Source of the DNA: Candidatus Woesearchaeota archaeon | GTDB lineage: Archaea; Nanobdellota; Nanobdellia; Woesearchaeales; GW2011-AR9 | Direction of reading: 5' to 3' | DNA: 64,000 bases | Assembly (NCBI GenBank): GCA_016185725.1 | Contig: JACPNA010000042.1 | Span: forward strand, 1,681-65,680 | Part shown: positions 25,938 to 58,226 of the stretch, piece by piece | Numbering within the stretch: the stretch's first letter is position 1 | Layout: each line of letters begins with the position of its first letter | Made by a program: the position numbers and the translations under genes | The notes under the pieces: model-generated | The model's input: the letters and a program-made list of their open reading frames with translations, nothing else | What the model was told of the DNA's origin: nothing | Databases searched by the model: none

Positions 25938-27236
25938 TCAAACAAGTAATTTATAATTTTTAAATTCTGATCCTTTTTTCTTCAATAAGCCGTTTAAATC
26001 AATAATCTTCCCCTCATACCATTTTAATTTATCAATGCCTAAATAATCTACTGACCCTATAATTATAGTGTCAAATTTATTCAAATCTGGTTCTTTTACC
26101 GCCAAAAGTCCCATTTGTGGCAGTGTACTTTCAATAAATGTTTTATTAGCTCCTAATAATAAATCTTGTTCAAAAAGATTATCTACAAATTGTACATTGT
26201 AATTTAAATCCTTCAAATTACGCATTAACTTAACGTATGGGCTTTCTCTAAAATCATCTGTTCCATTCTTAAAAGTTATCCCTGAAATTAAAATATTTTG
26301 AGGATTTCCCTCTGTGATTTTTTGTAATGAATATCGTATCTGTTCATCATTCGATTTCATTACTGATTCTAAAACTAATGGAAATGTGCCCGAAGTTAAA
26401 GTTAAAATACCTTTCAAATCCTTCGGTAAACATGAACCCCCAAACGCAAATCCTGGTTTTAAATAATAAGGAGATAAATTTAAAGTCTTATCTTGACAAA
26501 AAATATTCATAATCTTATGGCTATCTATGCCTAATTCATTGCAAATTCTCCCTATCTCATTGGCAAACCCTACTTTTAACCCATGAAATGCATTATTAGT
26601 ATACTTAAATATCTCCGCTTCTTCTAACTTAACACGATGAATATTTTCTTTAACCCCTATCTTATCATAAAATTGTTCTAATAAATCGCCAGATTTTCCA
26701 TCAGCTTGACCAATTATTGTAAATGGTGGATGATAAAAATCTTGCACCGATGTGCCTTCCCTTAAAAATTCAGGGTTCATGCATCCCCCAAAACTTTTCC
26801 CCAGATATAATCCTGAATTTTTTTCAATGACTTTAATAAAATTTTGAGTTGTTCCAGGAGGAACAGTACTTCGAATAACAAATAGATGATAACCAGATTT
26901 ATTACGCAATTCTAAATTTAATTGTTCAGCTAAATTAGATATAGCATCTAAATTAATGCTGCCGTCTTCTCTTGATGGGGTTCCTACACATATAAATGAA
27001 ATATCAGTCTCATGTAAGACTTCCCCTAATGACTCTGTAACTTTAATCCTTTGTTTTCTTACTCCTTCTAATAATAACGCCGAAACTTCTTTCTCCTTAA
27101 AAGGAGAAACCCCTTTTTGAATAAGAGCATTCTTTTTTACATCAATATCATATCCCAAAACTGTAATACCTTCTTGTGCTAAGCAACCGGCAAGTGTTGC
27201 TCCTACATAACCAAAACCAAACACACTAACCTTCAT
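25938..27236 (-). CDS. Nucleotide-sugar 6-dehydrogenase (UDP-ManNAc/UDP-GlcNAc/UDP-Glc dehydrogenase family)
   Basis: It has an N-terminal NAD fold (VFGFGYVGATLAGCLA) and the catalytic Cys motif GGSCLPKD, and has 432 aa. Confidence 0.8.
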   Translation of the reverse strand: MKVSVFGFGYVGATLAGCLAQEGITVLGYDIDVKKNALIQKGVSPFKEKEVSALLLEGVRKQRIKVTESLGEVLHETDISFICVGTPSREDGSINLDAISNLAEQLNLELRNKSGYHLFVIRSTVPPGTTQNFIKVIEKNSGLYLGKSFGGCMNPEFLREGTSVQDFYHPPFTIIGQADGKSGDLLEQFYDKIGVKENIHRVKLEEAEIFKYTNNAFHGLKVGFANEIGRICNELGIDSHKIMNIFCQDKTLNLSPYYLKPGFAFGGSCLPKDLKGILTLTSGTFPLVLESVMKSNDEQIRYSLQKITEGNPQNILISGITFKNGTDDFRESPYVKLMRNLKDLNYNVQFVDNLFEQDLLLGANKTFIESTLPQMGLLAVKEPDLNKFDTIIIGSVDYLGIDKLKWYEGKIIDLNGLLKKKGSEFKNYKLLV

Positions 27237-28201
27237 TTGGGATTCCTCCTAAAATTATACACCAAATCATACCACTCCACCAACCTTCTCACACCTTCTT
27301 CAATACTGACTTTTGGTTCATAACCTAACATTTCCCTGCTTTTAGAAACATCGGCAAATGTCATCTCTACATCCCCTTGCTGTTTCTCCACATATCGAAT
27401 TTTCACCTTTTTATTTAAATTATTCTCAATTAATGAAACAAAATAATTTAGTTGTACTGGATTTGCACCACCTAAATTAAATAGTTCATATTTATGGCTC
27501 TTATCCAACGCAGCTACAACTCCCCCAACAATATCGCTAATATAAGTATAATCTCGTCTAGATGTTCCCTCTCCATAAATTTCTATCTCTTCTCCTCGAG
27601 CAATCTTATCCACAAATTTAAATGGAGCCATGTCCGGCCTTCCTCTTGGACCATATACCGTAAAGAATCGCAAACAAGAACAATTTAAATCATAAAGATG
27701 ATTATAATTATAACAAAATAACTCTCCCGCTTTCTTACAAGCAGCATAAGGAGATATCGGCTTATCAACCATATCTGTTTCTTTAAAACAACCCTCTGTC
27801 CTATTACCATAAACCGAAGAACTTGACGCAAACACGAAATTATCTATCCCATATTGTTTTGCCAATTCCAACAAATTAAGCGTCCCTCTAATATTAACCT
27901 CTTCGTATAAAAAAGGATTATTAATCGAAGGTCTAATCCCTGCTCGAGCCGCTAAATGTATTATCTTCCGTGGATTTTCTTTTTCAAAAACACTTCGCAT
28001 TAACGAAAAATCTAAAATATCCCCGCGACATAATCGACAATTTCTTTTTTCTAAACAATCAACAATATTCCGCTCCTTAATCCTTGGATTATAATAATCA
28101 TTAAAATTATCCACACAAACAACTTCATCTTCTCGCGCTAACAATTCTTCACAAACATGGCTTCCGATAAATCCTGCTCCGCCTGTAACTAATATTTTCA
28201 T
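27233..28201 (-). CDS. UDP-glucuronate 4-epimerase-like SDR (NAD-dependent epimerase)
   Basis: It contains [24 protein letters not shown] (YxxxK) and RFFTVYGPRGRPDMA, which is characteristic of UDP-GlcA 4-epimerases. Confidence 0.7.
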   Translation of the reverse strand: MKILVTGGAGFIGSHVCEELLAREDEVVCVDNFNDYYNPRIKERNIVDCLEKRNCRLCRGDILDFSLMRSVFEKENPRKIIHLAARAGIRPSINNPFLYEEVNIRGTLNLLELAKQYGIDNFVFASSSSVYGNRTEGCFKETDMVDKPISPYAACKKAGELFCYNYNHLYDLNCSCLRFFTVYGPRGRPDMAPFKFVDKIARGEEIEIYGEGTSRRDYTYISDIVGGVVAALDKSHKYELFNLGGANPVQLNYFVSLIENNLNKKVKIRYVEKQQGDVEMTFADVSKSREMLGYEPKVSIEEGVRRLVEWYDLVYNFRRNPK

Positions 28202-28204
28202 ATT

Positions 28205-29155
28205 CTACTCTCCGATCAACCCTCTAAAATATGTTATTGTCTTTTTCAAACCATCTTCTAAATCTATCCTTGGCTCCCAATCTAATTTCTTTTTAGCTAA
28301 ACTTACATCTGGTTTACGTTTACAAGGATCATCTTGGGGCAATTTTTGATAAACAATCCTGCTTTTACTCCCGGTATAAGCAATAACTTTCTCCGCTAAT
28401 TCCAACATTGTAAATTCATTAGGATTACCTAAATTAACCGGTCCATTGAAATTTTCACAATTCATCATTTTAATCATACCCGCAACTAAATCATCAACAT
28501 ACTGAAAACTTCTCGTTTGTTTTCCATCGCCATAAATTGTAATATCCTTGCCTTCTAACGCTTGCACAATAAAATTACTAACCACTCTGCCATCATTTTT
28601 TGCCATTCTCGGTCCATAAGTATTAAAAATTCTCACAATTCTCACCTCTACATAATTCTGGCGATTATAATCAAAAAATAACGTTTCCGCAACCCGTTTG
28701 CCTTCATCATAACATGCCCTTATCCCATCACAATTGACATTACCTTTATAACGTTCAGTTTGCGGATGTTCTAGCGGATCACCATACACTTCCGAAGTTG
28801 ACGCTTGTAATATTCTCGCTTTGTGTTTCTTAGCTAAACCTAACATATTTATTACCCCAATAGTATTAGCTTTAATCGTTCTAATAGCATTATACTGATA
28901 ATGTACTGGTGAAGCGGGACAAGCTAAATTATAAATTTCATCAACATGTTTATCCGCAAAATAAGGATTTATAATATCATGTTCAACAAATTCAAAATTA
29001 TTATCACTTAACAAATGTTTAATATTCTCCTCACTTCCCGTAAATAAATTATCTACACAAATAACATTTTCTCCATTAGACAACAATTTCTCGCATAAAT
29101 GGCTTCCAATAAATCCTGCTCCTCCTGTAACCAGAATATTTTTTTTCTTTATCAT
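28205..29155 (-). CDS. UDP-glucuronate decarboxylase (UDP-xylose synthase, UXS)
   Basis: It contains [19 protein letters not shown]...[18 protein letters not shown] and YDEGKRVAE (YxxxK), a typical UXS signature. It has 316 aa. Confidence 0.75.
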
Positions 29156-30480
29156 AGTTGTAAAGGATAATTCCTCCCCACACCATAATAATTAAATCCA
29201 TGATTATTTGCTGCTTTTGGCAACCATCTATTCCTTAAATCAAATATCAAATTACCTTGCATTAATTCTTTTAATCTATCAAAATCAGGTGCGTCAAACT
29301 CTTTCCATTCTGTTAATAATATCAACGCATCAGCATCTTTAACTGCAGCATATTTATCTTCTGCAAAATTGACTTTATCCCCGAAAATTTGCCTTGCTTT
29401 ACCATCTTGTGGATCATAAGCAACAACTCTAGCTCCTTCTTTAATCAATCTTTCAATTATTGGAACAGAAGCTGCATCTCTCATATCATCAGTATTAGGT
29501 TTAAATGTCAATCCCCAAACTGCTACGTTAACTTTATCGCCTGTCAACAATTTTTGCACTCTTTCCCCCATATAATTCTTATGTGCCTCATTTGAATGAT
29601 GAATTTGACTTAACAATAGGGGGTCATATCCATTTTCTCTAGCTCTTGCCGCTAACCCCTGTACATCCTTTGGAAAACAACTTCCCCCATATCCTGGACT
29701 AGGAAACATAAATTTATAACCTATTCTTTGATCTTCACACACCATTTTTCGTATAATATCCATGTCCGCTTCCGGAGTAATATCTGCAATCCTCGCAAAT
29801 TCATTGATCGTCGCTATTCTTGTTGCTAACGCCGTATTGGAAAACAATTTTGCTAATTCTGCATCTGCTGGTGAACCGCGAATAATTCTATCACTTTGAA
29901 TATTAAATGGATGATACAATTCTTGCATAACTCTAAACGCCTCATCAGAATGAGTGCCAATAATTATTCGATCTGGTTTAGCAAAATCACTAATCGCTGT
30001 TCCTTCCGCTAACGTTTCCGGATTAGAAACATATCCCCATCTAACCTTTGCTCCTTTTAACTTATTATTAAAAATATTATTTACCAATTCATAAGTTCCT
30101 TGTGGCACCGTACTCTTTCCTACAACAACTTTAAATCCCTCAGCATCTTTTAAAATATCGCCTATCTCTTCCGCTACACTTTTAACATATCTCAAATCAA
30201 ATGAACCATCTTCATCAGAAGGTGTTCCTACCGCAATAAATATCACTTTAGAATTTAACACCGGCTCTCTTAAATGATAAGTAAATTTCAAATTACCGTT
30301 AGCTAAATTGTTCTTAACTAACCTTTCTAATCCCGGCTCATAAATATGTACTTTACCATTATTTAAATCTTCAATTATTTCTTCATTATTATCTACACAA
30401 ACTACTTCATTGCCTCTATCTGCAAATAATGTGCCGGTAACTAAACCTACATAACCAGTTCCCACCATTGTGATTTTCAT
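29152..30480 (-). CDS. ugd: UDP-glucose 6-dehydrogenase (Ugd)
   Basis: It contains [16 protein letters not shown] and GGSCFPKD. The ORF track extends to 30540, but the ATG at 30480 is preceded by GGAGGT 8 nt upstream, so the shorter start is preferred. Confidence 0.8.
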
Positions 30481-30550
30481 AACAATAAACCTCCAAAATA
30501 AGCTTCTAACCCCATTAGTTAAAAGAGATATAATAAACACCTAAACTATC

Positions 30551-31303
30551 CTATAATTCTTGATAAATAATACCTAACGCAAACCGTTCCGTTTCTTCAT
30601 AATCCAATGCTTTACCCATCGCTTTAACCTTATCACTAGCATCATAACTATCATCTAAATGATAGATTTTATCCTTAAAATAATCATGTTCTTTGCCAAA
30701 CGTAATACAACTTTGCATTATATCCACAAACGCAAATCCTTCGTATTCAATCGCTTTTTTCATTATCTCTACTAATCCCTTAGGATCGCCAGAATACGCC
30801 CGAGCGACAAATTTTGCTCCCGAAGCAATTGCTAATGCCAACGGATTAACTGGCATTTCTTCCGAACCACTCGGACTAGACTTACTCTTCGTTCCCTTCT
30901 TTGACGTCGGCGAATATTGTCCTGTCGTTAATCCAAACACTCCATTGTTATGTACAAAATAGGCAATGTTCACATTGCGTCTACACGCGTGAATAAAATG
31001 ATTTCCACCTTCACCATATCCATCTCCATCTCCGCCAAAAGCAATCACTTTAAGTTTAGAATTTGCTAATTTGACACCTTGAGCAACCGGCAAACTTCTC
31101 CCATGCAGCCCTACAAATCCATACGCTTTTATCCAATACGGCAATTTTGCAAAACAGCCAACTCCAGAGACTAACACTGTCTCCTCTTGTGGTACATTCA
31201 ACTCCATTAACGCCTTTTTAACACTTAAAATAATGCCAAAATTTCCGCAGGTTGGGCACCAATTAGGTTGTTCTTCTCTTTGAAAATCTTTAAGTGTTAA
31301 CAT
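30551..31303 (-). CDS. 2-oxoacid:ferredoxin oxidoreductase, beta (TPP-binding) subunit
   Basis: It has a TPP-binding GDGDGYGEGGNHF-type motif, conserved Cys near the N-terminus, and 250 aa. Confidence 0.8.
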   Translation of the reverse strand: MLTLKDFQREEQPNWCPTCGNFGIILSVKKALMELNVPQEETVLVSGVGCFAKLPYWIKAYGFVGLHGRSLPVAQGVKLANSKLKVIAFGGDGDGYGEGGNHFIHACRRNVNIAYFVHNNGVFGLTTGQYSPTSKKGTKSKSSPSGSEEMPVNPLALAIASGAKFVARAYSGDPKGLVEIMKKAIEYEGFAFVDIMQSCITFGKEHDYFKDKIYHLDDSYDASDKVKAMGKALDYEETERFALGIIYQEL

Positions 31304-33018
31304 TTTTTCTTCAACTCCTCATATAATTCATCAACTGAAAAGTTTTTGCCATCATAACGTAAAATTGTCTCCTCAAACCGTATCATCGTTTTTTCTTGTA
31401 TTAATCCGCCCAATTGTGCAGAATAATTATTCTCCACTAAAATTAATTTCTTAGCCTTACCTAAAACATTTCCTACTTCCTCAGACATAAATGGTCGCAT
31501 ATATTTAACAATAAACGCATTAATGCTTTTTCCTTGTTTTTGTAATCGTTCTACTGCTTCAATAATTGCTCCTGACGTGCTCCCCCACCCCACCACAGTA
31601 ATCTCTGCATTTTTCTCTCCATAAATTTCTTGAAGCGGTAATTCTTTGGCAATATAATCTAGCTTATTCATTCTCCTCTTCATCATTTTTATTCTAATTT
31701 CCTGCTCTTCTATAATCTCTCCTACCTCATCATGCTCATCACCAGCGCAAGTATAAAAACCATTTTCCGTTCCTGGTAATGTTCTTTCATAAACACCATC
31801 ATTTTCAACCTGATAACGTTTGAATAAACCATTTCGTAGATCTTTATCCTCTAGTTTTATTTTAACCCCGTATTTTTTAGAAAAATCAATGCTCAATTTC
31901 CTGCTTTCATCATGAAAACTTAACGTCTTAAAACTTTCTGCCAATTGTTTATCGATTAATACTAATACAGGCAATTGATATTTTTCTGCTAAATAAAACG
32001 CTCTTTTAGTTTCTGTATAACATTCTTCAATATTTGCTGGTGCTAAAACCACATGCGGAAAATCTCCAGTTCCAGAATATAACACAAACTTCAAATCGCC
32101 CTGTTCTGTTTTCGTCGGCAATCCCGTTGACGGTCCTGGTCTTTGTCCTTCAACGACTACTAACGGAACTTCCGCCATCGAAGCTAATCCCATCGCTTCG
32201 ATCATCAACGCAAATCCCCCTCCTGATGACGCGCACATTGCTCGTGCACCGGCATATGATGCTCCAATCGCCATATTGATAACCGCAATTTCATCTTCCA
32301 CTTGCATCACTTTTAATTCCTTATTCTTCTCTGCTTCCTTAGCTAGATTATGTAATATCGCCGAAACCGGCGTCATAGGGTATTGTACATGAAATTTTAA
32401 CCCTGCATCTAACGCCCCTAACGTAACCGCGTCATTCCCGCTCAAAAAATCAAATTTATTATTATGCGCTTCTATTTCTTCAACCCTCTCCACTAATTTT
32501 TCCGCTTCTCTTGCTGCTTTAGAATTTCTTTCTCCCTGTCCTGCCTTCTCTTTAAAAAATTCTTTAATAACTTCTTCTAAAATACTTGATTTTATTCCAA
32601 AATACTTTACAAACGCCCCCAAAAACAACGCATTGACAATTCCTTTTTCTTGCAATTCCTGCTCTAACTTTTTGACTGGAATTTTAATCAAGACTAAATT
32701 TTTATTATCTTCTTCATTAACATTAAAACTATCATCAACAAAAATAATTCCTTTCTTCTTCATAAATTCATAATGCTTGGCAATTGTATCTTTACTAAAC
32801 GCAAATAATACCTCAACATCATTAACATCAGCACTGACATTACTATTTGTAATTCTTAATGTATGATAATTATGCCCACCTTTAATTTGTGAAGCATATT
32901 CCTTGCTAGAATAAATATGATAACCTAATCTTACAAATACCTTCGCAAGAATATCTGCCGCTGCTGCTAACCCTAATCCCGCCTCCCCCCCAATACGCAC
33001 TACTAAATCCTTCTTCAT
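31297..33018 (-). CDS. 2-oxoacid:ferredoxin oxidoreductase, fused gamma-alpha subunit
   Basis: The N-terminal gamma domain (RIGGEAGLGLAAAADIL) is fused to a pyrimidine-binding/transketolase-like alpha domain. It has 573 aa and overlaps the beta gene by 7 nt. Confidence 0.8.
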   Translation of the reverse strand: MKKDLVVRIGGEAGLGLAAAADILAKVFVRLGYHIYSSKEYASQIKGGHNYHTLRITNSNVSADVNDVEVLFAFSKDTIAKHYEFMKKKGIIFVDDSFNVNEEDNKNLVLIKIPVKKLEQELQEKGIVNALFLGAFVKYFGIKSSILEEVIKEFFKEKAGQGERNSKAAREAEKLVERVEEIEAHNNKFDFLSGNDAVTLGALDAGLKFHVQYPMTPVSAILHNLAKEAEKNKELKVMQVEDEIAVINMAIGASYAGARAMCASSGGGFALMIEAMGLASMAEVPLVVVEGQRPGPSTGLPTKTEQGDLKFVLYSGTGDFPHVVLAPANIEECYTETKRAFYLAEKYQLPVLVLIDKQLAESFKTLSFHDESRKLSIDFSKKYGVKIKLEDKDLRNGLFKRYQVENDGVYERTLPGTENGFYTCAGDEHDEVGEIIEEQEIRIKMMKRRMNKLDYIAKELPLQEIYGEKNAEITVVGWGSTSGAIIEAVERLQKQGKSINAFIVKYMRPFMSEEVGNVLGKAKKLILVENNYSAQLGGLIQEKTMIRFEETILRYDGKNFSVDELYEELKKKC

Positions 33019-33388: not shown

Positions 33389-34489
33389 CTAATTCCCGCA
33401 CTGCGCCACCGCTGATGCTTCATCCTGTGTATACCCAAAACCCGGTGAAAACGCTTTATCCGGCAAAGATTCCGAACACTCTGCAGGTGGAGTATTAAAT
33501 GCATCGCAGATTGTCTTCAAATATGCCGCTGGAGACCGCTCTGAATTCGCTTCTGCCCCATTGATAATCAACGTTGGCGAACCCGCTACACTATATTTTT
33601 CATTATCTGCTTTGAATACATCGAACTTAGGGAATCTTCCGCTTAACCACGTAGTTTTATCATTAAACTGCTCTGTAATTCTAAACTCTGCATCTAACTT
33701 CTTCACACAGACTTTAAGTTTATCCTGATCAATTCCCGCTGTAGCTAAACACTCCTCGCCCTTGCCTTCCTTCAAGAAACACTTCAAATAAGTATTAAAT
33801 TTGCTTTTCTGCTCATTCCAAATACAGACCTGGTTCATTTCTTCCTTAACTTCCACCTCTCCATGCATGGCATAATAAACAAACTTCAATTCAAAATCAA
33901 CCTTATTGCCTAATTTTTCCACTGCTGATAAAATCCCTTTTTCTGCTTGTGTTCCATACGGACAATGACTCATTACAAACAATTCCACTGTAGGTTTATC
34001 TGATTTGGTGAATTCCGCTTGTTTTTGCGGACTTGAACTTGCCGTTCCTGCCGCCAACGGCTGAGTTACATCAATAGCCTGTGGAAAAAACAATTTTCCA
34101 TCCTTGGAAACATAACTATTAATCTCTTGACCATTCACACTTAATTTCATACTATAAATATTGCCTTCATCTTTAATTTCCTTTACCGAAGCTGTTGCCT
34201 GTCCTTGTAACAGATTTTTATTGATGAAATCCAATGTTTTCTGTGAAGCTTCTTCTTTAGAAACGCTCCCGCTGCCAAAAGATTTAAACCCGCTTGTAAA
34301 AAATGATATCACCAGCAATAACACTAAAACTCCCGTAACGACATACCAATAATTAAACTCTATTTCCTGTTTTTTACGATGTTCGGAGCCATGATGTTCA
34401 GAACTATGATGTTCATGACCACCTTTATGTTCTTCTGTATGCATCCCTTCATGTTCACAATTATGCTCGCATTTATGTTCTTCTGACAT
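33389..34489 (-). CDS. Membrane-anchored protein with a His-rich N-terminal tail and an extracytoplasmic DsbA/thioredoxin-like domain
   Basis: The N-terminus is MSEEHKCEHNCEHEGMHTEEHKGGHEHHSSEHHGSEH, followed by a single TM helix and a thioredoxin-fold region (FVMSHCPYGTQ, with only one Cys in the CxxC position). Eight further Cys occur in the C-terminal half. Confidence 0.5.
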   Translation of the reverse strand: MSEEHKCEHNCEHEGMHTEEHKGGHEHHSSEHHGSEHRKKQEIEFNYWYVVTGVLVLLLVISFFTSGFKSFGSGSVSKEEASQKTLDFINKNLLQGQATASVKEIKDEGNIYSMKLSVNGQEINSYVSKDGKLFFPQAIDVTQPLAAGTASSSPQKQAEFTKSDKPTVELFVMSHCPYGTQAEKGILSAVEKLGNKVDFELKFVYYAMHGEVEVKEEMNQVCIWNEQKSKFNTYLKCFLKEGKGEECLATAGIDQDKLKVCVKKLDAEFRITEQFNDKTTWLSGRFPKFDVFKADNEKYSVAGSPTLIINGAEANSERSPAAYLKTICDAFNTPPAECSESLPDKAFSPGFGYTQDEASAVAQCGN

Positions 34490-34512
34490 ATAGTACCCAC
34501 CTCAAATATTTT

Positions 34513-35277
34513 TTAATATACTTTTAACACTTTTCTCAACCCTATGCTAAATAGAATTGATAAAATTATATACCACGCTAACCATCCTGGATACCATCCA
34601 AACAAAGATACTTTTTTTCCTAATGGTCTTAACTTATTGTAATTAATTTTAAGCTGTTCAATATCAGAATGATCAAAAACGGTCACTGCTTCATCCGCTG
34701 ATAAAACCGTAGTAATTAACACCTTCTTGCTTTGTTCCGCCTCCCCGCTTTTAACCAAAAACTCATGATCGCCTTCCTTGCTCCTTAACGACCAAACTGC
34801 TTCTTTATTTTTTATTTCCTGTTTAACTTCGCTTAAAACTTCCGTATCATCATCTACTATTATCTCAGCATAGCCATTAACCCCTTCCTTAAAAACAGCA
34901 GTTACAGAATAAGATTCATCCGGAAATATTGGCTCATAGCTCAAATGTCCTGTCATCCATGCAAAAATAATCAAAATAGGAATCATCGTAATTAACGTTG
35001 GCTTTATCGAATGTTTCATATATTCAAAATTAGTCGTCATCGCTTCTTTTTGCATCTTCATCATTTCTTCCGGCTTATCCCTCATCAACTTAATTTTATC
35101 TTGAAACTCTTTCTGTTTATCCTTAAGCCTCTTCATTTCATCTTGATTACTAAAAAATTTGTAAGCTAACGTAACAATCAACGTAATAATTAATGCTAGA
35201 ATAACTATGCCTAAAAAAGGATTGAAATTGAGTATGGGCAGCATCACCGGATTAAAAATTGGATCTAAAAATGCCAT
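34513..35277 (-). CDS. DUF106/Oxa1-superfamily (archaeal YidC/EMC3/TMCO1-like) membrane insertase candidate with inserted soluble domain
   Basis: A TM1 helix is followed by a K/E/R-rich coiled coil (KRLKDKQKEFQDKIKLMRDKPEEMMKMQKEA), then TM2, a ~110-aa soluble insert and a C-terminal TM. Confidence 0.45.
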   Translation of the reverse strand: MAFLDPIFNPVMLPILNFNPFLGIVILALIITLIVTLAYKFFSNQDEMKRLKDKQKEFQDKIKLMRDKPEEMMKMQKEAMTTNFEYMKHSIKPTLITMIPILIIFAWMTGHLSYEPIFPDESYSVTAVFKEGVNGYAEIIVDDDTEVLSEVKQEIKNKEAVWSLRSKEGDHEFLVKSGEAEQSKKVLITTVLSADEAVTVFDHSDIEQLKINYNKLRPLGKKVSLFGWYPGWLAWYIILSILFSIGLRKVLKVY

Positions 35278-35331: not shown

Positions 35332-36345
35332 TTAGAAAGAGTATTTTCTTTTGACCGCCGCTTCTTCTTCCTTCTCAAACAAATATCCTGGTAAGAATGA
35401 TTTCTTAAAATACTGATAAAATTCCACCATATTAAAATCTTCAATTAAATCCTTAAAATCATTTCTTACTTGAATTATTAATTCTCTTACTCTTTCCCTG
35501 CTCGACGCTTCAATATCAATTTCCATATCCCAATCCCCTACCGTTTTATTCATCTGCACAATTTCTCTTGTTTTCAATAGATAACTTGTTAATGCCGCTT
35601 CTCTTTCTGGAGTGAAATTATGCAATTTCAAAAACAGTCTGACTTTTTCAATGCCTAATTGTCGTGCATCTAACAAATATTTGAACCCTTTGATGATTCT
35701 TCTTTTTTGCAGAGATTTAAACAAGCTATTTACTGTTTTAATATTTAATTCCGTATTGGCAGCTAATTTTGTCAGCCTCATCTTAGGTGCATATAACAAT
35801 TCCTTCATCAACTTGATTTCATCTTCTGTAAAATATTGCACTTCCCTATCTCCCCCGACGATTTTTTCTTGCTGTATTAATAACGGAGAATCTTCTAGTA
35901 ATAAATACGAACGTGGATAAACATGAGTTACTACATTCAGAATAATTTTATAATGATTCAACGTCGGAATAACTGCTGCAATTTTTTTTAGTTCTTTATT
36001 GAATCGTGAAGCATTGGGTGCCCCTACTTCTACGACAAAATCAAACTCTCCGCTTAATTCATACATTGACATAATATATTTATTCTCTTTCAATTGCTTG
36101 ATTATCGCCACCTTATCCTCTTCGCCAATATACCCGCCTTTGAAATAAACACGAAATAACAATATCCCGAAATAAGAATAATCAAAAATACAATGCGCAT
36201 TATTCACCATGCACTCTTTTTCTAAGACATCCAAAGAATATTTTATCCTCTGCGAACTCTTCCTCAATTGACTTGCTAACTCTTTAATCTTAATTCGTGA
36301 ATTTTCACAATACAAAAAGAGCAGATTTCTGTCAACAAGCACCAT
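35332..36345 (-). CDS. Tandem-duplicated Lrp/AsnC-like transcriptional regulator (2x HTH + RAM/ACT-like modules)
   Basis: Two HTH-like segments (IKIKELASQLRKSSQRI... and MRLTKLAANTELNIKTVNSLFKSL) are each followed by a beta-alpha-beta-like domain. The protein has 337 aa. Confidence 0.4.
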   Translation of the reverse strand: MVLVDRNLLFLYCENSRIKIKELASQLRKSSQRIKYSLDVLEKECMVNNAHCIFDYSYFGILLFRVYFKGGYIGEEDKVAIIKQLKENKYIMSMYELSGEFDFVVEVGAPNASRFNKELKKIAAVIPTLNHYKIILNVVTHVYPRSYLLLEDSPLLIQQEKIVGGDREVQYFTEDEIKLMKELLYAPKMRLTKLAANTELNIKTVNSLFKSLQKRRIIKGFKYLLDARQLGIEKVRLFLKLHNFTPEREAALTSYLLKTREIVQMNKTVGDWDMEIDIEASSRERVRELIIQVRNDFKDLIEDFNMVEFYQYFKKSFLPGYLFEKEEEAAVKRKYSF

Positions 36346-36451
36346 TTCTAAATATAATTTTTATTTATTAATAAATCTTGTGGCCAATATGATAAAAAAA
36401 CAAAAAATAAGTGAGAATACATATAAATACCCGCTTTACCTTTAAAACTTC

Positions 36452-37225
36452 ATGAACAGAGTCACTAAAGAAAATATTTTTGAGGCAATGATTCAGCTGC
36501 AATATTTTAACTTGCTTAATTCCCTGCCCTATTTCCAAAAAAATCAAATTTGTGACATTGATGGTACTCCTTTAAACAGCCAAGAAAATCCTCATTCTAA
36601 AGGCGCTTATATTATCTATGATGGTCCAGAAATTCTTGAAAAAGCCCGTTCCATGGCAGTACGTAAACATGGTTTTGGTTCTACCTTAGAAACACCAACA
36701 CAAACCGATTTGCTCGGCTACATAAAATCAAATAAAGATTCCGATGTTACTTTATTGTACAACACTGCTGCTCAACAAATTACTCCTCTGAAAGGTGAAT
36801 TAAAGAATTATGTGGAAGGAGAAGATTTAGAAAAAATTTTAAAATCCAACTTACCTGCCGATTTTGTTGAACCGAACGCTAATTCCCTCAATCTTGATCA
36901 AATCGGTACCAAAACTGCCAACGCCATTTTTGTTCCATATATCCTCAACAAAAACCAAGACGCGGGTGTGCGTACTATTTTGGTAAAACGTTCTCCTTAC
37001 GGATCCTTAGGCATGGGTAAAGTAGCCGAATTCAGCAAAGACGGTTTAACCCGTGAATTCTTCCTGTGTCACGACCAAAATCATCACGGCCTATTTGTTA
37101 ATGCCAACTACCACATAGTTGGAGAAGTTCGTACTTACTCTAAAGAAAACAACAAACTAAAACTAAAACAACATCAATTCGTTCACATTTCCCAGGAAGG
37201 AGATATACAATATAATATGCAATAA
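36452..37225 (+). CDS. Hypothetical protein (257 aa), no recognisable domain
   Basis: It is a long ORF with balanced composition and is divergent from the Lrp-like regulator. Confidence 0.45.
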   Translation: MNRVTKENIFEAMIQLQYFNLLNSLPYFQKNQICDIDGTPLNSQENPHSKGAYIIYDGPEILEKARSMAVRKHGFGSTLETPTQTDLLGYIKSNKDSDVTLLYNTAAQQITPLKGELKNYVEGEDLEKILKSNLPADFVEPNANSLNLDQIGTKTANAIFVPYILNKNQDAGVRTILVKRSPYGSLGMGKVAEFSKDGLTREFFLCHDQNHHGLFVNANYHIVGEVRTYSKENNKLKLKQHQFVHISQEGDIQYNMQ

Positions 37226-37644: not shown

Positions 37645-38058
37645 ATGAAAAAAACAATTATACCATTTCTATTAATTTTAGTATTGACATTAACCATCAG
37701 TGCCTGTACCACTTCCTCATCAGAAACTACTGCCAACACGCAAGTAACAACCGCCGCAACCGCCTCCACTTCCGACAACACCGACAAAGAAGTTCATATC
37801 GATATGTTCAATTTTGGTTTCATACAGGATCCCATCACTATCCAAAAAGGAGACCGTGTACGCTTACGTATTACCAGCAGTCAAGGAACCCATAGTCTCA
37901 CCATCCCCGAGTTAGGTTTATCCACTGGAGCAATTAGTGCAGGACAACAACAAGTACTCGAATTCACCGCTAAACAATCCGGCGCATTTAACTATTTCTG
38001 CACCATCCCCTGCGGTAGTGGACATCGGACCATGCGTGGACAGCTTACTATAGAATAA
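37645..38058 (+). CDS. Cupredoxin-domain lipoprotein (type-1 copper-site-like His/Cys/His/Met)
   Basis: It has a signal peptide plus lipobox (LTLTISAC), a Thr/Ser-rich linker, then GTHSL...YFCTIPCGSGHRTM (C-x3-H-x2-M). An RBS-like AGAGGCG lies upstream. Confidence 0.6.
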   Translation: MKKTIIPFLLILVLTLTISACTTSSSETTANTQVTTAATASTSDNTDKEVHIDMFNFGFIQDPITIQKGDRVRLRITSSQGTHSLTIPELGLSTGAISAGQQQVLEFTAKQSGAFNYFCTIPCGSGHRTMRGQLTIE

Positions 38059-38595: not shown

Positions 38596-39984
38596 CTACT
38601 CCATAAACTTTCTCATCGTCGGATTCATGTCCATCATATGTTGCTTCGCAATCTCTTCATACAACTTGTACACAATCATCACCGCTAATAATATCCCCGT
38701 TCCACGCGATAACGCCCCCGTTAAATCTGCAATCGACGCTAATAACCCTATTGCCGCCCCTCCCACGATAGTAAGTGGCCATATATATCGCTCTAAAATT
38801 CTCTCTAACACTCGTTCGTCCCTTCTAAACCCCGGAATTTGTAGACCAGAATTTAATATCTGTTTCGCTTGCGAACGCGCATCCATGCCTGACGTTTGCA
38901 CCCAGAAAATACTAAACAAAATCGCTCCTCCCACCATTAAAGAGATATAAAAAAACGCTTGACCTAACTGTGATAACGTAAAACTTCCCCTAATTACATT
39001 CTGCACGATATCCGGAGAACTTATCCAATACACAACCCCGCTTATCGGTGAATTCCCGGAAAACGTACCTAAAAGAGGATGCCCCCATTTTTCTAACAAG
39101 CGAGCAAATAGCTGTATATTCGCAATAAATGCCGCGACCAAAATAACCGGAATGTTGGAAGTATAAAAGAAATTCAATGGCCAGCGCATGCTATACCCCC
39201 TCACTCTTCCAAATGATAATGGAATTTCCACCTTCATCGCTTGACCATACACACAAATCGCAAACACAATTAACGTAGAAACAACCGCCGCGAACATTAA
39301 CGCTGCTGTTGTCACATCTCCTGATGCTAAAGATTGAAATAACGCCGGAATCGCTCCCGCCGCAATTTCCGGATTAGTTGGTGAAGGCAAAAAGTTAAAC
39401 GCCCTAATAAATATCTCTTGTGCTACCCCTGCTGCAATAAAAAGCGATATTCCCGAACCTAAACCCCACTTGGAAACAACTTCGTCCATGAACATAATTA
39501 AAATTCCGCCGAGAGTCAACTGAAATATCAACAACAATTCCATCTGCAAAAACAACGGCGTTCCTGCCAACGCCGGTGAAGGTGCTAACCCCCCCATAAA
39601 CACATAAATACACGCTTCAAAAACAACAAAAAACATCCCCAAAAATTTTTGTAATCCTTGGAATTTCTTTCTGCCTTCTGTATTCGTTAAATCAAACTTC
39701 AATATTCCTGTTCCATTCAATAACTGCAGAACAATAGAAGCAGTTACTAATGGCCCAATACCTAACGAAATAATGCTTCCAAACGACGCACCTAAAATAA
39801 TCGATAAAAACTCAAACTGCTGTAGCGCGTTTTCTCCTAACCCATATAATGGGATATGTCCCATCACAAAAAAAATCACTAAAATAATTAACGTCCATTT
39901 TAATTTTTCCTTAAACGGCAGTTTTTTCTGTAATGGACCTCGAACTTCCGGTAAATTAGAAATAATTGTATCAAATAAACCCAT
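38596..39984 (-). CDS. secY: Preprotein translocase subunit SecY
   Basis: The 462-aa, 10-TM protein sits at the end of the ribosomal operon with typical SecY sequence. Confidence 0.9.
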   Translation of the reverse strand: MGLFDTIISNLPEVRGPLQKKLPFKEKLKWTLIILVIFFVMGHIPLYGLGENALQQFEFLSIILGASFGSIISLGIGPLVTASIVLQLLNGTGILKFDLTNTEGRKKFQGLQKFLGMFFVVFEACIYVFMGGLAPSPALAGTPLFLQMELLLIFQLTLGGILIMFMDEVVSKWGLGSGISLFIAAGVAQEIFIRAFNFLPSPTNPEIAAGAIPALFQSLASGDVTTAALMFAAVVSTLIVFAICVYGQAMKVEIPLSFGRVRGYSMRWPLNFFYTSNIPVILVAAFIANIQLFARLLEKWGHPLLGTFSGNSPISGVVYWISSPDIVQNVIRGSFTLSQLGQAFFYISLMVGGAILFSIFWVQTSGMDARSQAKQILNSGLQIPGFRRDERVLERILERYIWPLTIVGGAAIGLLASIADLTGALSRGTGILLAVMIVYKLYEEIAKQHMMDMNPTMRKFME

Positions 39985-56231: not shown

Positions 56232-57194
56232 ATGCAAAAGAGTGTGAGAAAAACCCTATTTTTATCTCTCCTGATTTTCTCTCTCCTATTCTTAATCTCC
56301 TGCAGTAAAGTTGCCGGTGGTGAAACTCCTCCTGACACTGCCGCTCGCCTTAAAGCCGTTCAGACTGGTACCCAAGGCATTGTTCTAAGAATCATGCCTA
56401 ATGCTCCTCCCCCTATAATTTACGATCGCAATGAACTAGTCGCTATTGTTGATGTTGATAATAAAGGTAACTTCCCCTTAGAACCAACGGAATGTTTCAT
56501 CCAAGTAACCGGCTTTGACCCTACTATCATTAAGGGTAGTATGAATTCTCCTCATTCCTGTGCCGAAAACTATCCCGGAATATTTGAAGGAAAAACAATC
56601 TATAACCTCAATGGTGGCACTAACCAAATTGAATTCCGTTCTCCTAATGTTATTCTCCCTCCTGGAGTTCAGGAATACAGCCCTATTTTAAATTTCTTAT
56701 CCTGTTATCATTATCATACTATCGCTAATCCTCAAATATGTGTAGACCCTTTATTTTATCAAGTAACTTCCCAGCAAAAAACGTGTATTCCCAAATCTGT
56801 AGGTATGACTGGTGGACAAGGAGCACCTGTTGCCATAAGCAATGTTGGCGTAGAGATGACCGGTGGTCGCGCTGTATTTACTATTACCATCAACAACATT
56901 GGTGGTGGTCGTGTGCTCTCCCCCTATGCCAACTATCAAGAATGCGGACAAGCTTCTATTGCTCGAACTGACGAAGATAAGGTCGTCTTTGACGTAAAAT
57001 TAGCTGGAGCCAGCCTTGTTGACTGTAAACCTCGAGATAAAATTGTCCGTCTAAATAATGGTATTGGTCAAATATTTTGCACATTTAATATCCCTGGTTC
57101 TACCGCATATGAAACCCCTTTGTCTATTGACTTAGATTATAGCTACATGCAATCCTTTACCCGCCCCATAAAAATAGTAAAAACACCCGAATAA
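56232..57194 (+). CDS. Secreted lipoprotein, hypothetical (paralog A)
   Basis: It has a signal peptide with lipobox-like LISCSK and a beta-rich mature domain ending ...GAPVAISNVGVE...VFTITINN. Confidence 0.55.
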   Translation: MQKSVRKTLFLSLLIFSLLFLISCSKVAGGETPPDTAARLKAVQTGTQGIVLRIMPNAPPPIIYDRNELVAIVDVDNKGNFPLEPTECFIQVTGFDPTIIKGSMNSPHSCAENYPGIFEGKTIYNLNGGTNQIEFRSPNVILPPGVQEYSPILNFLSCYHYHTIANPQICVDPLFYQVTSQQKTCIPKSVGMTGGQGAPVAISNVGVEMTGGRAVFTITINNIGGGRVLSPYANYQECGQASIARTDEDKVVFDVKLAGASLVDCKPRDKIVRLNNGIGQIFCTFNIPGSTAYETPLSIDLDYSYMQSFTRPIKIVKTPE

Positions 57195-57314: not shown

Positions 57315-58226
57315 ATGAAATACAAAAGTATAATTCTATTTATTGTAATGCTTGCTAGTATGTTGCTGCTTACTGCTTGTAATACGCAACAACAAACCAA
57401 CCAACCCAAAGGAATTTATATAGGTGGTACTCTCGGTATAGTCGCTAAATTTCAGCCATTTGGCGTCACTGAAGATAACATTTACAGCATCTACGACTCT
57501 GAAACATTTCCTATAGAAACAACCTTTACTAACAAAGGGGAGTATGAAATTAAACCCGGCGATGTAACTATTAAATTACTTGGTCCCTCTGAAAAAGAAT
57601 TCTCCGGTATAGCTAATTGGGAATTAAAAAATAAAGATACCGTAGAAAAAATAAGTGAACTAACACCTAACGGCGGAGAAGAAACCCTTAGTTTTGCTTC
57701 TGATGCCAAATATCTCAGCCCTGTTACCGGAGCAATTCAACGCGCTTGGTTTGCTAATATAGAATACAAATATCAAACCTACGCTATCGTTCCTGAAGTA
57801 TGTTTAAAAGAGGACCTCACTGATAAACGCGTTTGTGAAGTTAAAGATCCAAAAAAAGCAGTATCTGTTTCTGGCGCCCCCATAACTATAACTAACGTAG
57901 AAGAAGACACCTCGGGAAAAGGAATTATGGCCTTAAAATTCAAAATTAAAAACGTCGCTACCGGCAAAGTAGCCCTCCCCGCAGAAGATTTTTCTCCTAA
58001 TCTAGACAAACTCTCTTTCTCATTGGACGATTCTGCTTGGGAATGTAAATCCACCGGAAAAATCAATGAAGCACGTCTTATAAACGGAGAAGCAGAAATC
58101 GTCTGTAAACTAAAAGAAGCCCTGGCTAAAGGCGCACTTTCCACAACGCAAGTTAAACTAACGCTTGACTATAAATATAGAGATATAATCTCCGAGAAAA
58201 TTCAAATCAAGCAAAGCGTAAAATAA
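57315..58226 (+). CDS. Secreted lipoprotein, hypothetical (paralog B)
   Basis: It has a signal peptide with LLTACN lipobox and shares C-terminal architecture with paralog A (GAPITITNVEE...ALKFKIKN). Confidence 0.55.
   Translation: MKYKSIILFIVMLASMLLLTACNTQQQTNQPKGIYIGGTLGIVAKFQPFGVTEDNIYSIYDSETFPIETTFTNKGEYEIKPGDVTIKLLGPSEKEFSGIANWELKNKDTVEKISELTPNGGEETLSFASDAKYLSPVTGAIQRAWFANIEYKYQTYAIVPEVCLKEDLTDKRVCEVKDPKKAVSVSGAPITITNVEEDTSGKGIMALKFKIKNVATGKVALPAEDFSPNLDKLSFSLDDSAWECKSTGKINEARLINGEAEIVCKLKEALAKGALSTTQVKLTLDYKYRDIISEKIQIKQSVK

Follow-up and report, generated by a model that had tools for sequence, protein, structure and literature searches.

What does a protein do that carries a histidine-rich tail on one side of the membrane and a thioredoxin fold with a single active-site cysteine on the other? 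The question is raised by an open reading frame (ORF) in a 64,000-nucleotide stretch (hereafter the window) of contig JACPNA010000042.1 from a Candidatus Woesearchaeota archaeon (Table 1). The encoded protein is a type-II (N-in, C-out) membrane-anchored, predicted exported thioredoxin-fold protein, and its family is a distant GILT/DsbA-like relative which falls in neither Pfam family. On balance we favour a function as an extracytoplasmic thiol-disulfide exchange catalyst, of the isomerase or reductase type, that would work through Cys176 of a CPYG motif, with Cys364 near the C terminus put forward only tentatively as the resolving residue.

The fold is seen in an AlphaFold2 (AF2) model built on a family alignment of 121 sequences, the same alignment over which all conservation, topology and Pfam counts out of 121 given below were made. 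The model has a mean predicted local distance difference test score (pLDDT) of 84, with values >90 over most of residues 75–350, and consists of a disordered tail (residues 1–41, pLDDT <50), a helix at residues 47–64, a domain of one helix and three strands at residues 78–128, a poorly ordered linker and a thioredoxin fold with a helical insertion at residues 166–350, which reaches pLDDT 94–98; confidence is low over the final 10–15 residues. Foldseek returned 30 DsbA-family matches at E ≤ 1e-3, the nearest solved fold being mouse GILT, followed by DsbA proteins, and the three elements by which DsbA/Thioredoxin_4 proteins are recognised (thioredoxin fold, inserted helical domain and cis-Pro loop) are all present. 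One hydrophobic segment, at the N terminus, was found in 121/121 family proteins (Kyte-Doolittle peak 2.38 for the sole segment of the window protein, residues ~47–66), and because Lys and Arg are in excess on its N-terminal flank in 110/121 of them (means 4.3 vs. 1.6), the positive-inside rule gives an N-in/C-out orientation. An initial annotation, made from the letters of the window, had described one transmembrane (TM) helix, an extracytoplasmic DsbA-like thioredoxin fold and a monothiol CPYG motif, and all three have held: the helix as this single segment, the fold and its location through the AF2 model, the fold searches and the positive-inside rule, and the motif through the codons at its position and a CPxG that is fixed in the family. 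Neither an inverted topology nor the lack of a thioredoxin fold was found. The same annotation had counted eight more cysteines in a C-terminal region; seven follow the motif (222, 237, 247, 261, 328, 338 and 364), making eight in the whole ectodomain.

The place that CxxC occupies in other proteins of this fold, the N-terminal end of helix alpha-1, is taken here by the CP[YF]G motif. Residues M173, C176, P177, G179, Q181, K184, Y206, M208, H209, E213 and E216 are invariant in the alignment, as are G303-S304-P305, N310, G350, G352 and all eight ectodomain cysteines. The strict motif pattern is present in 116/120 of the closest proteins, the remaining four having CP[YF]G in MSQCP[YF]GT or MSHCPYGM contexts, and 82/83 species loci combine CP[YF]G with a cysteine among the last five residues, the 83rd keeping the terminal cysteine and failing the motif pattern only. 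Selenocysteine at position 179 was considered, as a single base change would turn the GGA codon into TGA and NCBIfam gave a weak ‘DF family (seleno)protein’ match, and was rejected: TGA (selenocysteine) or TGY (Cys) at the Gly179 codon in its conserved context gave no match in 241 million metagenome records, a collection with no positive control inside it, whilst locally the Gly version of the codon pattern matched 70/84 fetched loci. CPYC variants likewise had no match in the metagenome collection.

Loss of the canonical CxxC could mean that the protein is redox-inactive, a holdase, adaptor or structural envelope protein with a non-catalytic Cys176 and merely another thioredoxin-fold protein of the envelope, with parallels in the DsbA-like YjbH, the b domains of PDI and CxxS GILT-like proteins; DsbA-fold proteins with non-redox roles (YjbH 6ghb, GST-kappa and HCCA isomerase) are among the fold matches. 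CxxS GILT-like proteins have reportedly been described in mosquitoes. A module without the active-site cysteine was seen, however, only as module 1 of the tandem protein P0004, beside an intact module. Members from both domains of life have kept the whole MSHCP[YF]GTQxEKG block together with the cis-Pro loop, and no single-module protein has another residue in place of the cysteine; on these grounds we argue for a catalytic constraint and hold inactivity to be most improbable.

The remaining cysteines fall into pairs. Across divergent modules with CAAC, CKSC, CYAC, CQAC, CLYC and CVHC patterns, comparison at positions 222, 237, 247 and 261 found that 237 and 247 were lost jointly and 222 and 261 retained; Cys328 and Cys338 were kept or lost as a pair, and in one divergent module the first four structural cysteines have gone whilst the last two are retained. 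This covariation points to three structural disulfides, 222–261, 237–247 and 328–338, with C176 and C364 left over. The spacer between the GFG motif and the terminal cysteine is 10–13 residues long in 271/302 sequences, 68% of it Ala, Ser, Gly or Thr, and 0–3 residues follow the cysteine; so constrained a spacer is what one would expect of a tethered arm whose reach is set. A PGF-CTERM/archaeosortase signal, in which PGF precedes a hydrophobic TM helix and a basic tail, was suggested by the sequence SPGFGY and rejected, as (P)GFG is followed only by 10–13 small or polar residues and Cys-Gly, with no C-terminal hydrophobic helix.

Under the mechanism that we propose, the exposed thiolate of Cys176 would react with envelope proteins just after their translocation, attacking their disulfides or being attacked by their thiols, and give a mixed disulfide. 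As Gly replaces the internal resolving cysteine, this intermediate would have to be resolved otherwise. Either another thiol of the substrate would release it, amounting to the isomerase or shuffling chemistry that is established for CxxS mutants of PDI, or the C-terminal arm might bring Cys364 in to complete a split redox pair. Oligomerisation or substrate holding may be the role of the membrane-proximal cystatin/DsbG-N-like domain, and the SecY-YidC-like operon found in the window’s clade would put the protein where export takes place. Redox residues on flexible C-terminal arms are known from mammalian thioredoxin reductase, MerA, Erv2p and atypical 2-Cys peroxiredoxins. These enzymes (GCUG in thioredoxin reductase, a Cys pair in MerA, CGC in Erv2p, the resolving Cys in the peroxiredoxins) share the principle, with a cysteine 1–3 residues from the end, an arm of small residues and a fixed partner cysteine, but are unrelated in fold and cofactor, and the Cys176–Cys364 pairing in the window protein is putative.

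Cys364 might alternatively form an intermolecular disulfide, giving a covalent homodimer of the DsbC/DsbG kind, in which Cys176 would work alone, purely as a monothiol isomerase or in forming mixed disulfides. GILT precursors have a 10–15-residue tail ending in Cys-x-x, which echoes the family’s terminal cysteine, and this near-C-terminal cysteine of the GILT precursor is reported to form covalent homodimers. The narrow 10–13-residue spacer and the invariant GFG hinge fit an arm that has to reach one particular site, but the length could also be set by contact within a dimer, and we regard the covalent dimer as rather unlikely.

Several observations weigh against a GILT/DsbA-like exchange catalyst with Cys364 as its resolving residue. 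The window protein scores below the Pfam gathering thresholds of both GILT (PF03227; 18.5 bits, cut-off 22.4, E 0.0026) and Thioredoxin_4 (PF13462; 16.7 bits, cut-off 23.2), and PDB sequences searched with the family profile matched no more than weakly, near the cis-Pro loop (best E 0.006), GILT not being among them. The last 4–16 residues of the AF2 model, where the Cys364 arm lies, have low pLDDT. The arm cysteine is not obligatory, because P0122, which consists of two CPFG modules, has no terminal cysteine, and the first modules of other tandem proteins have a different cysteine-rich segment in place of the arm. Module 1 of P0004 is degenerate, with AYSPYLL in place of SHCPYGT, and has lost both Cys176 and the tail cysteine whilst keeping the other six; this joint loss counts in favour of the proposal, yet that of the tail cysteine may simply reflect the internal position of the module. 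No redox partner, DsbB and VKOR included, was seen within the 64-kb window. Finally, DUF106 is directly upstream in 13/83 loci (tblastn), all 13 being the closest relatives with SecY 73–82% identical, so the linkage to SecY and DUF106 is real but clade-specific, and it was rejected as a family-wide trait.

Metal chemistry in the ectodomain was also weighed, namely a Sco/ScsC-type chaperone or buffer of metal (e.g. copper) that would use Cys176, Cys364, Met173, Met208 and His209 as ligands and carry out no disulfide exchange. Met173, Met208, His209 and Cys176 are invariant and, by the topology of the fold, would lie along the same sheet edge; the top fold matches include ScsC (‘suppressor of copper sensitivity’) proteins, and the gene for a CuA-type cupredoxin lipoprotein lies at a distance of 3 kb in the window. 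The His of the MHG motif, however, matches the conserved His of the GILT CQHG signature, which argues for inheritance within the family and not for a new metal site, and His175 is replaced by Tyr, Gln, Lys or Glu in some members. Proteins of the Sco (CxxxC) and TlpA (CxxC) types have a distal His, whereas the window motif has a single cysteine, there is no Sco-type CxxxC...H motif, and the best fold matches are GILT and DsbA, not Sco. With the cupredoxin gene a neighbour in 0/84 related loci as well, such a chaperone is very improbable.

The exchange catalyst that we favour has its closest known counterparts in GILT and the DsbA proteins. GILT is the commonest Pfam match in the family, with 76/121 members at E ≤ 0.01 (best 4.3e-5) and scores that stay close to the threshold or under it. 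For a profile-profile comparison, 18 vertebrate GILTs were aligned, the true mouse GILT sequence being taken from PDB 6nwx (matched by a human GILT query at E 1.7e-89). Comparison of the family with this alignment (hhalign) gave E 3.9e-5 and a probability of 70.6% over 134 columns, whilst that with the single mouse sequence was uninformative (probability ~1%). The alignment pairs C222, C237, C247, C261, C328 and C338 with the invariant GILT cysteines C129, C145, C159, C175, C223 and C235, H209-G210-E..E213 with QHGE.EC, and S304-P305 with V-P-W. Its N-terminal register is wrong, the PYG of the motif being placed on VPYGNA of GILT, and the equivalence of C176 with GILT C69 therefore rests on the fold match and not on hhalign. 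The fold and conserved cysteine framework of GILT (PF03227) are present in the family, but CP[YF]G stands in place of the CxxC reductase site, and from the GILT signature CQHGxxECxxNxxxxC the window protein retains only H209, G210, E213 and the final cysteine (C222), with A207 and V214 replacing the signature cysteines; the CQHGxxEC disulfide is lacking. It further differs from GILT, a soluble enzyme of lysosomes and endosomes with an acidic pH optimum, in being prokaryotic and membrane-anchored, and in its additional N-terminal cystatin-like domain, TM helix and cytoplasmic tail.

With the Gram-positive and actinobacterial DsbAs (S. aureus DsbA 3bci, M. tuberculosis DsbA 4jr4/4k6x, BdbD and MdbA) it shares the extracytoplasmic site, often with an N-terminal anchor, and a thioredoxin fold whose helical domain holds an extra structural disulfide; the cis-Pro loop is common to both as well (GSPT vs. 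GTPT). Unlike the DsbA family (PF01323, PF13462) it lacks CxxC and has the C-terminal cysteine arm. The isomerases DsbC, DsbG and ScsC differ in possessing CxxC, which DsbD keeps reduced in DsbC and DsbG; these two form V-shaped homodimers through an N-terminal dimerisation domain. The catalytic domain of the window protein is DsbA/GILT-like with a helical insertion, not DsbC-like, and its N-domain resembles generic cystatin and PepSY folds as closely as that of DsbG. The family is part of a well-known superfamily, from which it is marked off by the fixed CxxG, the terminal cysteine arm, its restriction to two ultra-small episymbiotic radiations and, in one clade, the SecY-YidC-like operon.

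Those two radiations emerged from searches at three scales. Among 5.8 billion proteins in 90%-identity clusters, 2,582 clusters matched the family at E ≤ 1e-3; the listed matches have no Pfam domain, nearly all named ones are called hypothetical proteins, and the sources that are named are Woesearchaeota, Nanoarchaeota and a few Patescibacteria. A HMMER scan of 50%-identity representatives, in which the query was the tandem-module member P0004, returned 1,856 at E ≤ 1e-3 and 486 at E ≤ 1e-30. With one genome per GTDB species, the family was found in at least 569 species, belonging to Woese-, Pace-, Nano- and Aenigmarchaeota and to Parcu-, Vogel-, Falkow- and Nomurabacteria. At the bacterial locus L002 the family gene lies beside truly bacterial genes (L32p, NusB, FtsH and RNase III), hence the family is common to DPANN archaea and bacteria of the Candidate Phyla Radiation (CPR). 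It is a large family without a Pfam model, confined to DPANN archaea and CPR/Patescibacteria, and no description of it was found in Pfam, NCBIfam or the searchable literature. For several ‘binchicken’ metagenome-assembled genome records with the family (e.g. L007, L008, L030 and L042) the title reads ‘uncultured Methanosarcinales’ or ‘uncultured Gammaproteobacteria’. Such naming has the look of placeholder taxonomy, as the family copies resemble the DPANN (tailed) and CPR (tail-less) types, respectively.

Multi-module relatives also occur (P0130, P0169, P0172, P0125, P0129, P0174, P0206, P0122 and P0004). In P0130, P0169 and P0172 a single polypeptide contains both a CPFC DsbA-like module and a CPxG module, and the others are tandem CPxG modules with extra CxxC-containing cysteine-rich segments between them. 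Neighbour clustering across the loci gave a canonical CxxC Thioredoxin_4/DSBA protein, present in 14 loci, as the next commonest partner, followed by a class-V aminotransferase (10) and Lgt (9); DsbD/CcdA is absent from the recurrent neighbours. Together, this neighbourhood and the CPFC-CPxG fusions tie the family functionally to dithiol oxidoreductases. The Thioredoxin_4/DSBA neighbour is often fused to an N-terminal cysteine-rich membrane domain without a Pfam match (L074 7178–8158, L032 7202–8179, L020 4955–5884, L071 8967–9899, L023 2319–3233 and L004 9878–10852). These fusions are ~305–326 residues long, their C-terminal half being the canonical CxxC domain and their N-terminal ~150 residues a multi-TM region with conserved cysteine pairs (MICIIALIVF...NCVFKKITLRKC...YGNCNG...FC), which could be an undescribed DsbB/VKOR-like disulfide-generating module.

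We now return to the tail. The protein begins MSEEHKCEHNCEHEGMHTEEHKGGHEHHSSEHHGSEHRKK, and its first 40 residues contain 11 His, 2 Cys and 10 Glu. Six of the His follow one another with strict i,i+4 spacing (5, 9, 13, 17, 21 and 25), and the other five occupy positions 27, 28, 32, 33 and 37. Against a background of 1.8% His in the long ORFs of the window, the probability of at least 11 His in 40 residues is 1e-10 (~2e-6 corrected), and no other ORF of the window has a comparable stretch. The initial annotation was right about the richness in His and about the HxxxH spacing, but its counts of ~14 His and 3 Cys in the first ~40 residues were too high. It had gone on to propose that the cytoplasmic tail binds Ni, Zn or Co, making the protein a metal-regulated or metal-delivering extracytoplasmic thiol-oxidoreductase, and this finds no support in comparison across the family. 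The composition (11 His, 12 Glu and 2 Cys in ~46 residues, with the i,i+4 spacing) does suit metal binding, weak, composition-driven matches to the His-rich loops of ZIP and CDF/DmeF transporters were obtained, and His-rich tails recur in archaeal members, with a median of 23% His both over the tails of the 120 closest proteins (median length 37 residues) and over the top 113. At least five His are present, however, in the tails of only 21/57 archaeal species loci, the other 36 having fewer and being Glu-, Lys- or Asn-rich, and in 0/23 bacterial loci; all 23 bacterial-type loci open directly with the signal anchor, and the ectodomain motifs are invariant there. A core function driven by metal is thus unsupported, as the tail is absent from bacterial members and poor in His in most archaeal ones.

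Homologues with the same tail, for which the initial annotation had called, exist in composition and in part of the family, but not in sequence: the tails cannot be aligned except for a basic cluster and a Trp ahead of the TM helix, and the tail cysteines are confined to the nearest relatives. The tail DNA consists of imperfect tandem repeats with periods of 15 and 24 nt, a make-up typical of fast-evolving low-complexity sequence. There would be no route for metal transfer either, because tail and catalytic domain are on opposite sides of the membrane with one helix joining them, and neighbour clustering across the loci gave no conserved neighbour that handles metal. The His-rich tails and loops of HypB, SlyD, UreE and Hpn, and of ZIP and CDF proteins, have the same composition and HxxxH/EH spacing, but the window tail is on no metal-handling domain, is not conserved in the family and is derived from repeats; in a His-rich metallochaperone the segment is conserved along with the metal-enzyme maturation domain that carries it, whereas here the attached domain is a thioredoxin fold across the membrane. 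We conclude that the tail is probably a lineage-specific, repeat-derived accessory, dispensable for the core activity of the family, that it may plausibly, from its composition, bind divalent metal (Zn, Ni) in the host organism, and that metal regulation or delivery as the protein’s function is improbable. One subclade (loci L005, L010, L013, L014, L015 and L024; proteins P0011, P0023, P0026 and P0027) has an N-terminal MTHFE(K/N)E ahead of a variable His-rich region, the only conserved sequence element observed in the cytoplasmic tails.

The possible significance of the exchange catalyst lies in the organisms that encode it. DPANN archaea and CPR bacteria rely on surface proteins for attachment to host cells and, to our knowledge, generally have no quinones or respiratory chains, so that oxidation of the DsbB/VKOR type would not be possible; no paper on the folding or maintenance of disulfide-bonded envelope proteins in either group was found in the searchable literature. 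If the protein is their disulfide isomerase or oxidoreductase, it would represent a third design of extracytoplasmic oxidative folding, beside DsbA/DsbB and DsbA/VKOR, and would provide a prokaryotic anchor for the origin of GILT as well as a testable marker of, and target in, uncultivated DPANN/CPR organisms. A more speculative picture, which we think doubtful as a whole, is that CPR and DPANN share a dedicated, horizontally exchanged and self-contained envelope thiol-disulfide catalyst with a split redox centre (the CPxG cysteine and a swinging C-terminal cysteine), that this is the prokaryotic sister or source of eukaryotic GILT, and that the His-rich tail adds metal or pH control in some Woesearchaeota.

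Table 1 Features of the GILT/DsbA-like gene and its surroundings, in window coordinates.
Feature	Position	Strand	Details
Whole ORF, type-II anchored GILT/DsbA-like protein	33389..34489	minus	ATG start, 366 aa + stop
GAGGTG Shine-Dalgarno-like motif	34498..34503	minus	8 nt ahead of ATG, read from sequence
Cytoplasmic His/Glu-rich low-complexity tail, residues 1–41	34367..34489	minus	11 His, 2 Cys, HxxxH periodicity; predicted disordered, pLDDT <50
Single TM signal-anchor helix, residues ~47–66, preceded by RKK	34292..34351	minus	Hydrophobicity, AF2, K/R bias
Membrane-proximal alpha+beta domain, residues ~75–128	34106..34267	minus	One helix + 3-stranded sheet; cystatin/PepSY/DsbG-N-terminal-like fold
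Low-complexity linker, residues 129–165, conserved KSDKP at its end	33995..34105	minus	Alignment, AF2
Thioredoxin fold with helical insertion (GILT/DsbA-like), residues 166–349	33443..33994	minus	AF2, fold searches, Pfam, profile-profile comparison
Active-site motif C176-P-Y-G179 inside invariant MSHCPYGTQAEKG	33953..33964	minus	Codons TGT CCG TAT GGA
Span of six structural Cys (222, 237, 247, 261, 328, 338)	33476..33826	minus	Putative pairs 222–261, 237–247, 328–338
S304-P305 of GSPTLIING, cis-proline loop of thioredoxin folds	33575..33580	minus	Alignment
C-terminal arm, residues 350–366	33392..33442	minus	Invariant GFG, 11 mostly small residues, then terminal Cys364-Gly-Asn
T-rich tract directly behind stop codon	33345..33388	minus	Plausible archaeal oligo-T terminator, from sequence only
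Upstream EMC3/TMCO1/DUF106 gene (YidC/Oxa1-like insertase)	34513..35277	minus	Upstream neighbour kept in closest relatives
SecY, end of ribosomal-protein cluster	38596..39984	minus	SecY-DUF106-X-L34e is the ancestral order in the clade

The gene follows DUF106, 4 kb from SecY at the end of the ribosomal-protein cluster, and co-transcription with DUF106 is likely, as only 23 nt separate the DUF106 stop from the gene. On the contigs of P0026 and P0065 the order is ...L30-L15-SecY-DUF106-X-L34e-L14e. The insertase itself is 254 residues long (253–258 in relatives) and is covered by Pfam over residues 14–113 only, which implies an insert or extension of ~100 residues before the last TM helix. SecY and DUF106 are adjacent in close relatives, whereas genes have been inserted between them in the window (35332–37225): an Lrp/AsnC-like regulator of unusual length (337 residues, one helix-turn-helix and one AsnC domain matched), an unannotated 257-residue protein on the opposite strand, a cupredoxin and a GNAT acetyltransferase. 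The cupredoxin/COX2-like lipobox protein (LTISAC; 137 residues, 37645–38058, plus strand), between SecY and the gene studied here, has a ligand pattern of the CuA type (C119-x3-C123-x3-H127-x2-M130) although no further gene for cytochrome oxidase is close by, and its linkage to the family was rejected on the locus counts given above.

Elsewhere in the window, two adjacent lipobox proteins on the plus strand, at 56232–57194 (LISC) and 57315–58226 (LTAC), have no Pfam match and contain eight and four additional cysteines, an even number in each case. Both are candidate clients and may plausibly be surface proteins with disulfide bonds. Positions 1–30540 hold mostly sugar-nucleotide/glycosyltransferase-type genes and large multi-TM proteins, with two UDP-glucose/GDP-mannose dehydrogenases and two NAD-dependent epimerase/dehydratases confirmed by Pfam in 25938–30540, a grouping suggestive of an island for the synthesis of cell-envelope glycans, which lies upstream of the 2-oxoacid:ferredoxin oxidoreductase pair at 30551–33018.

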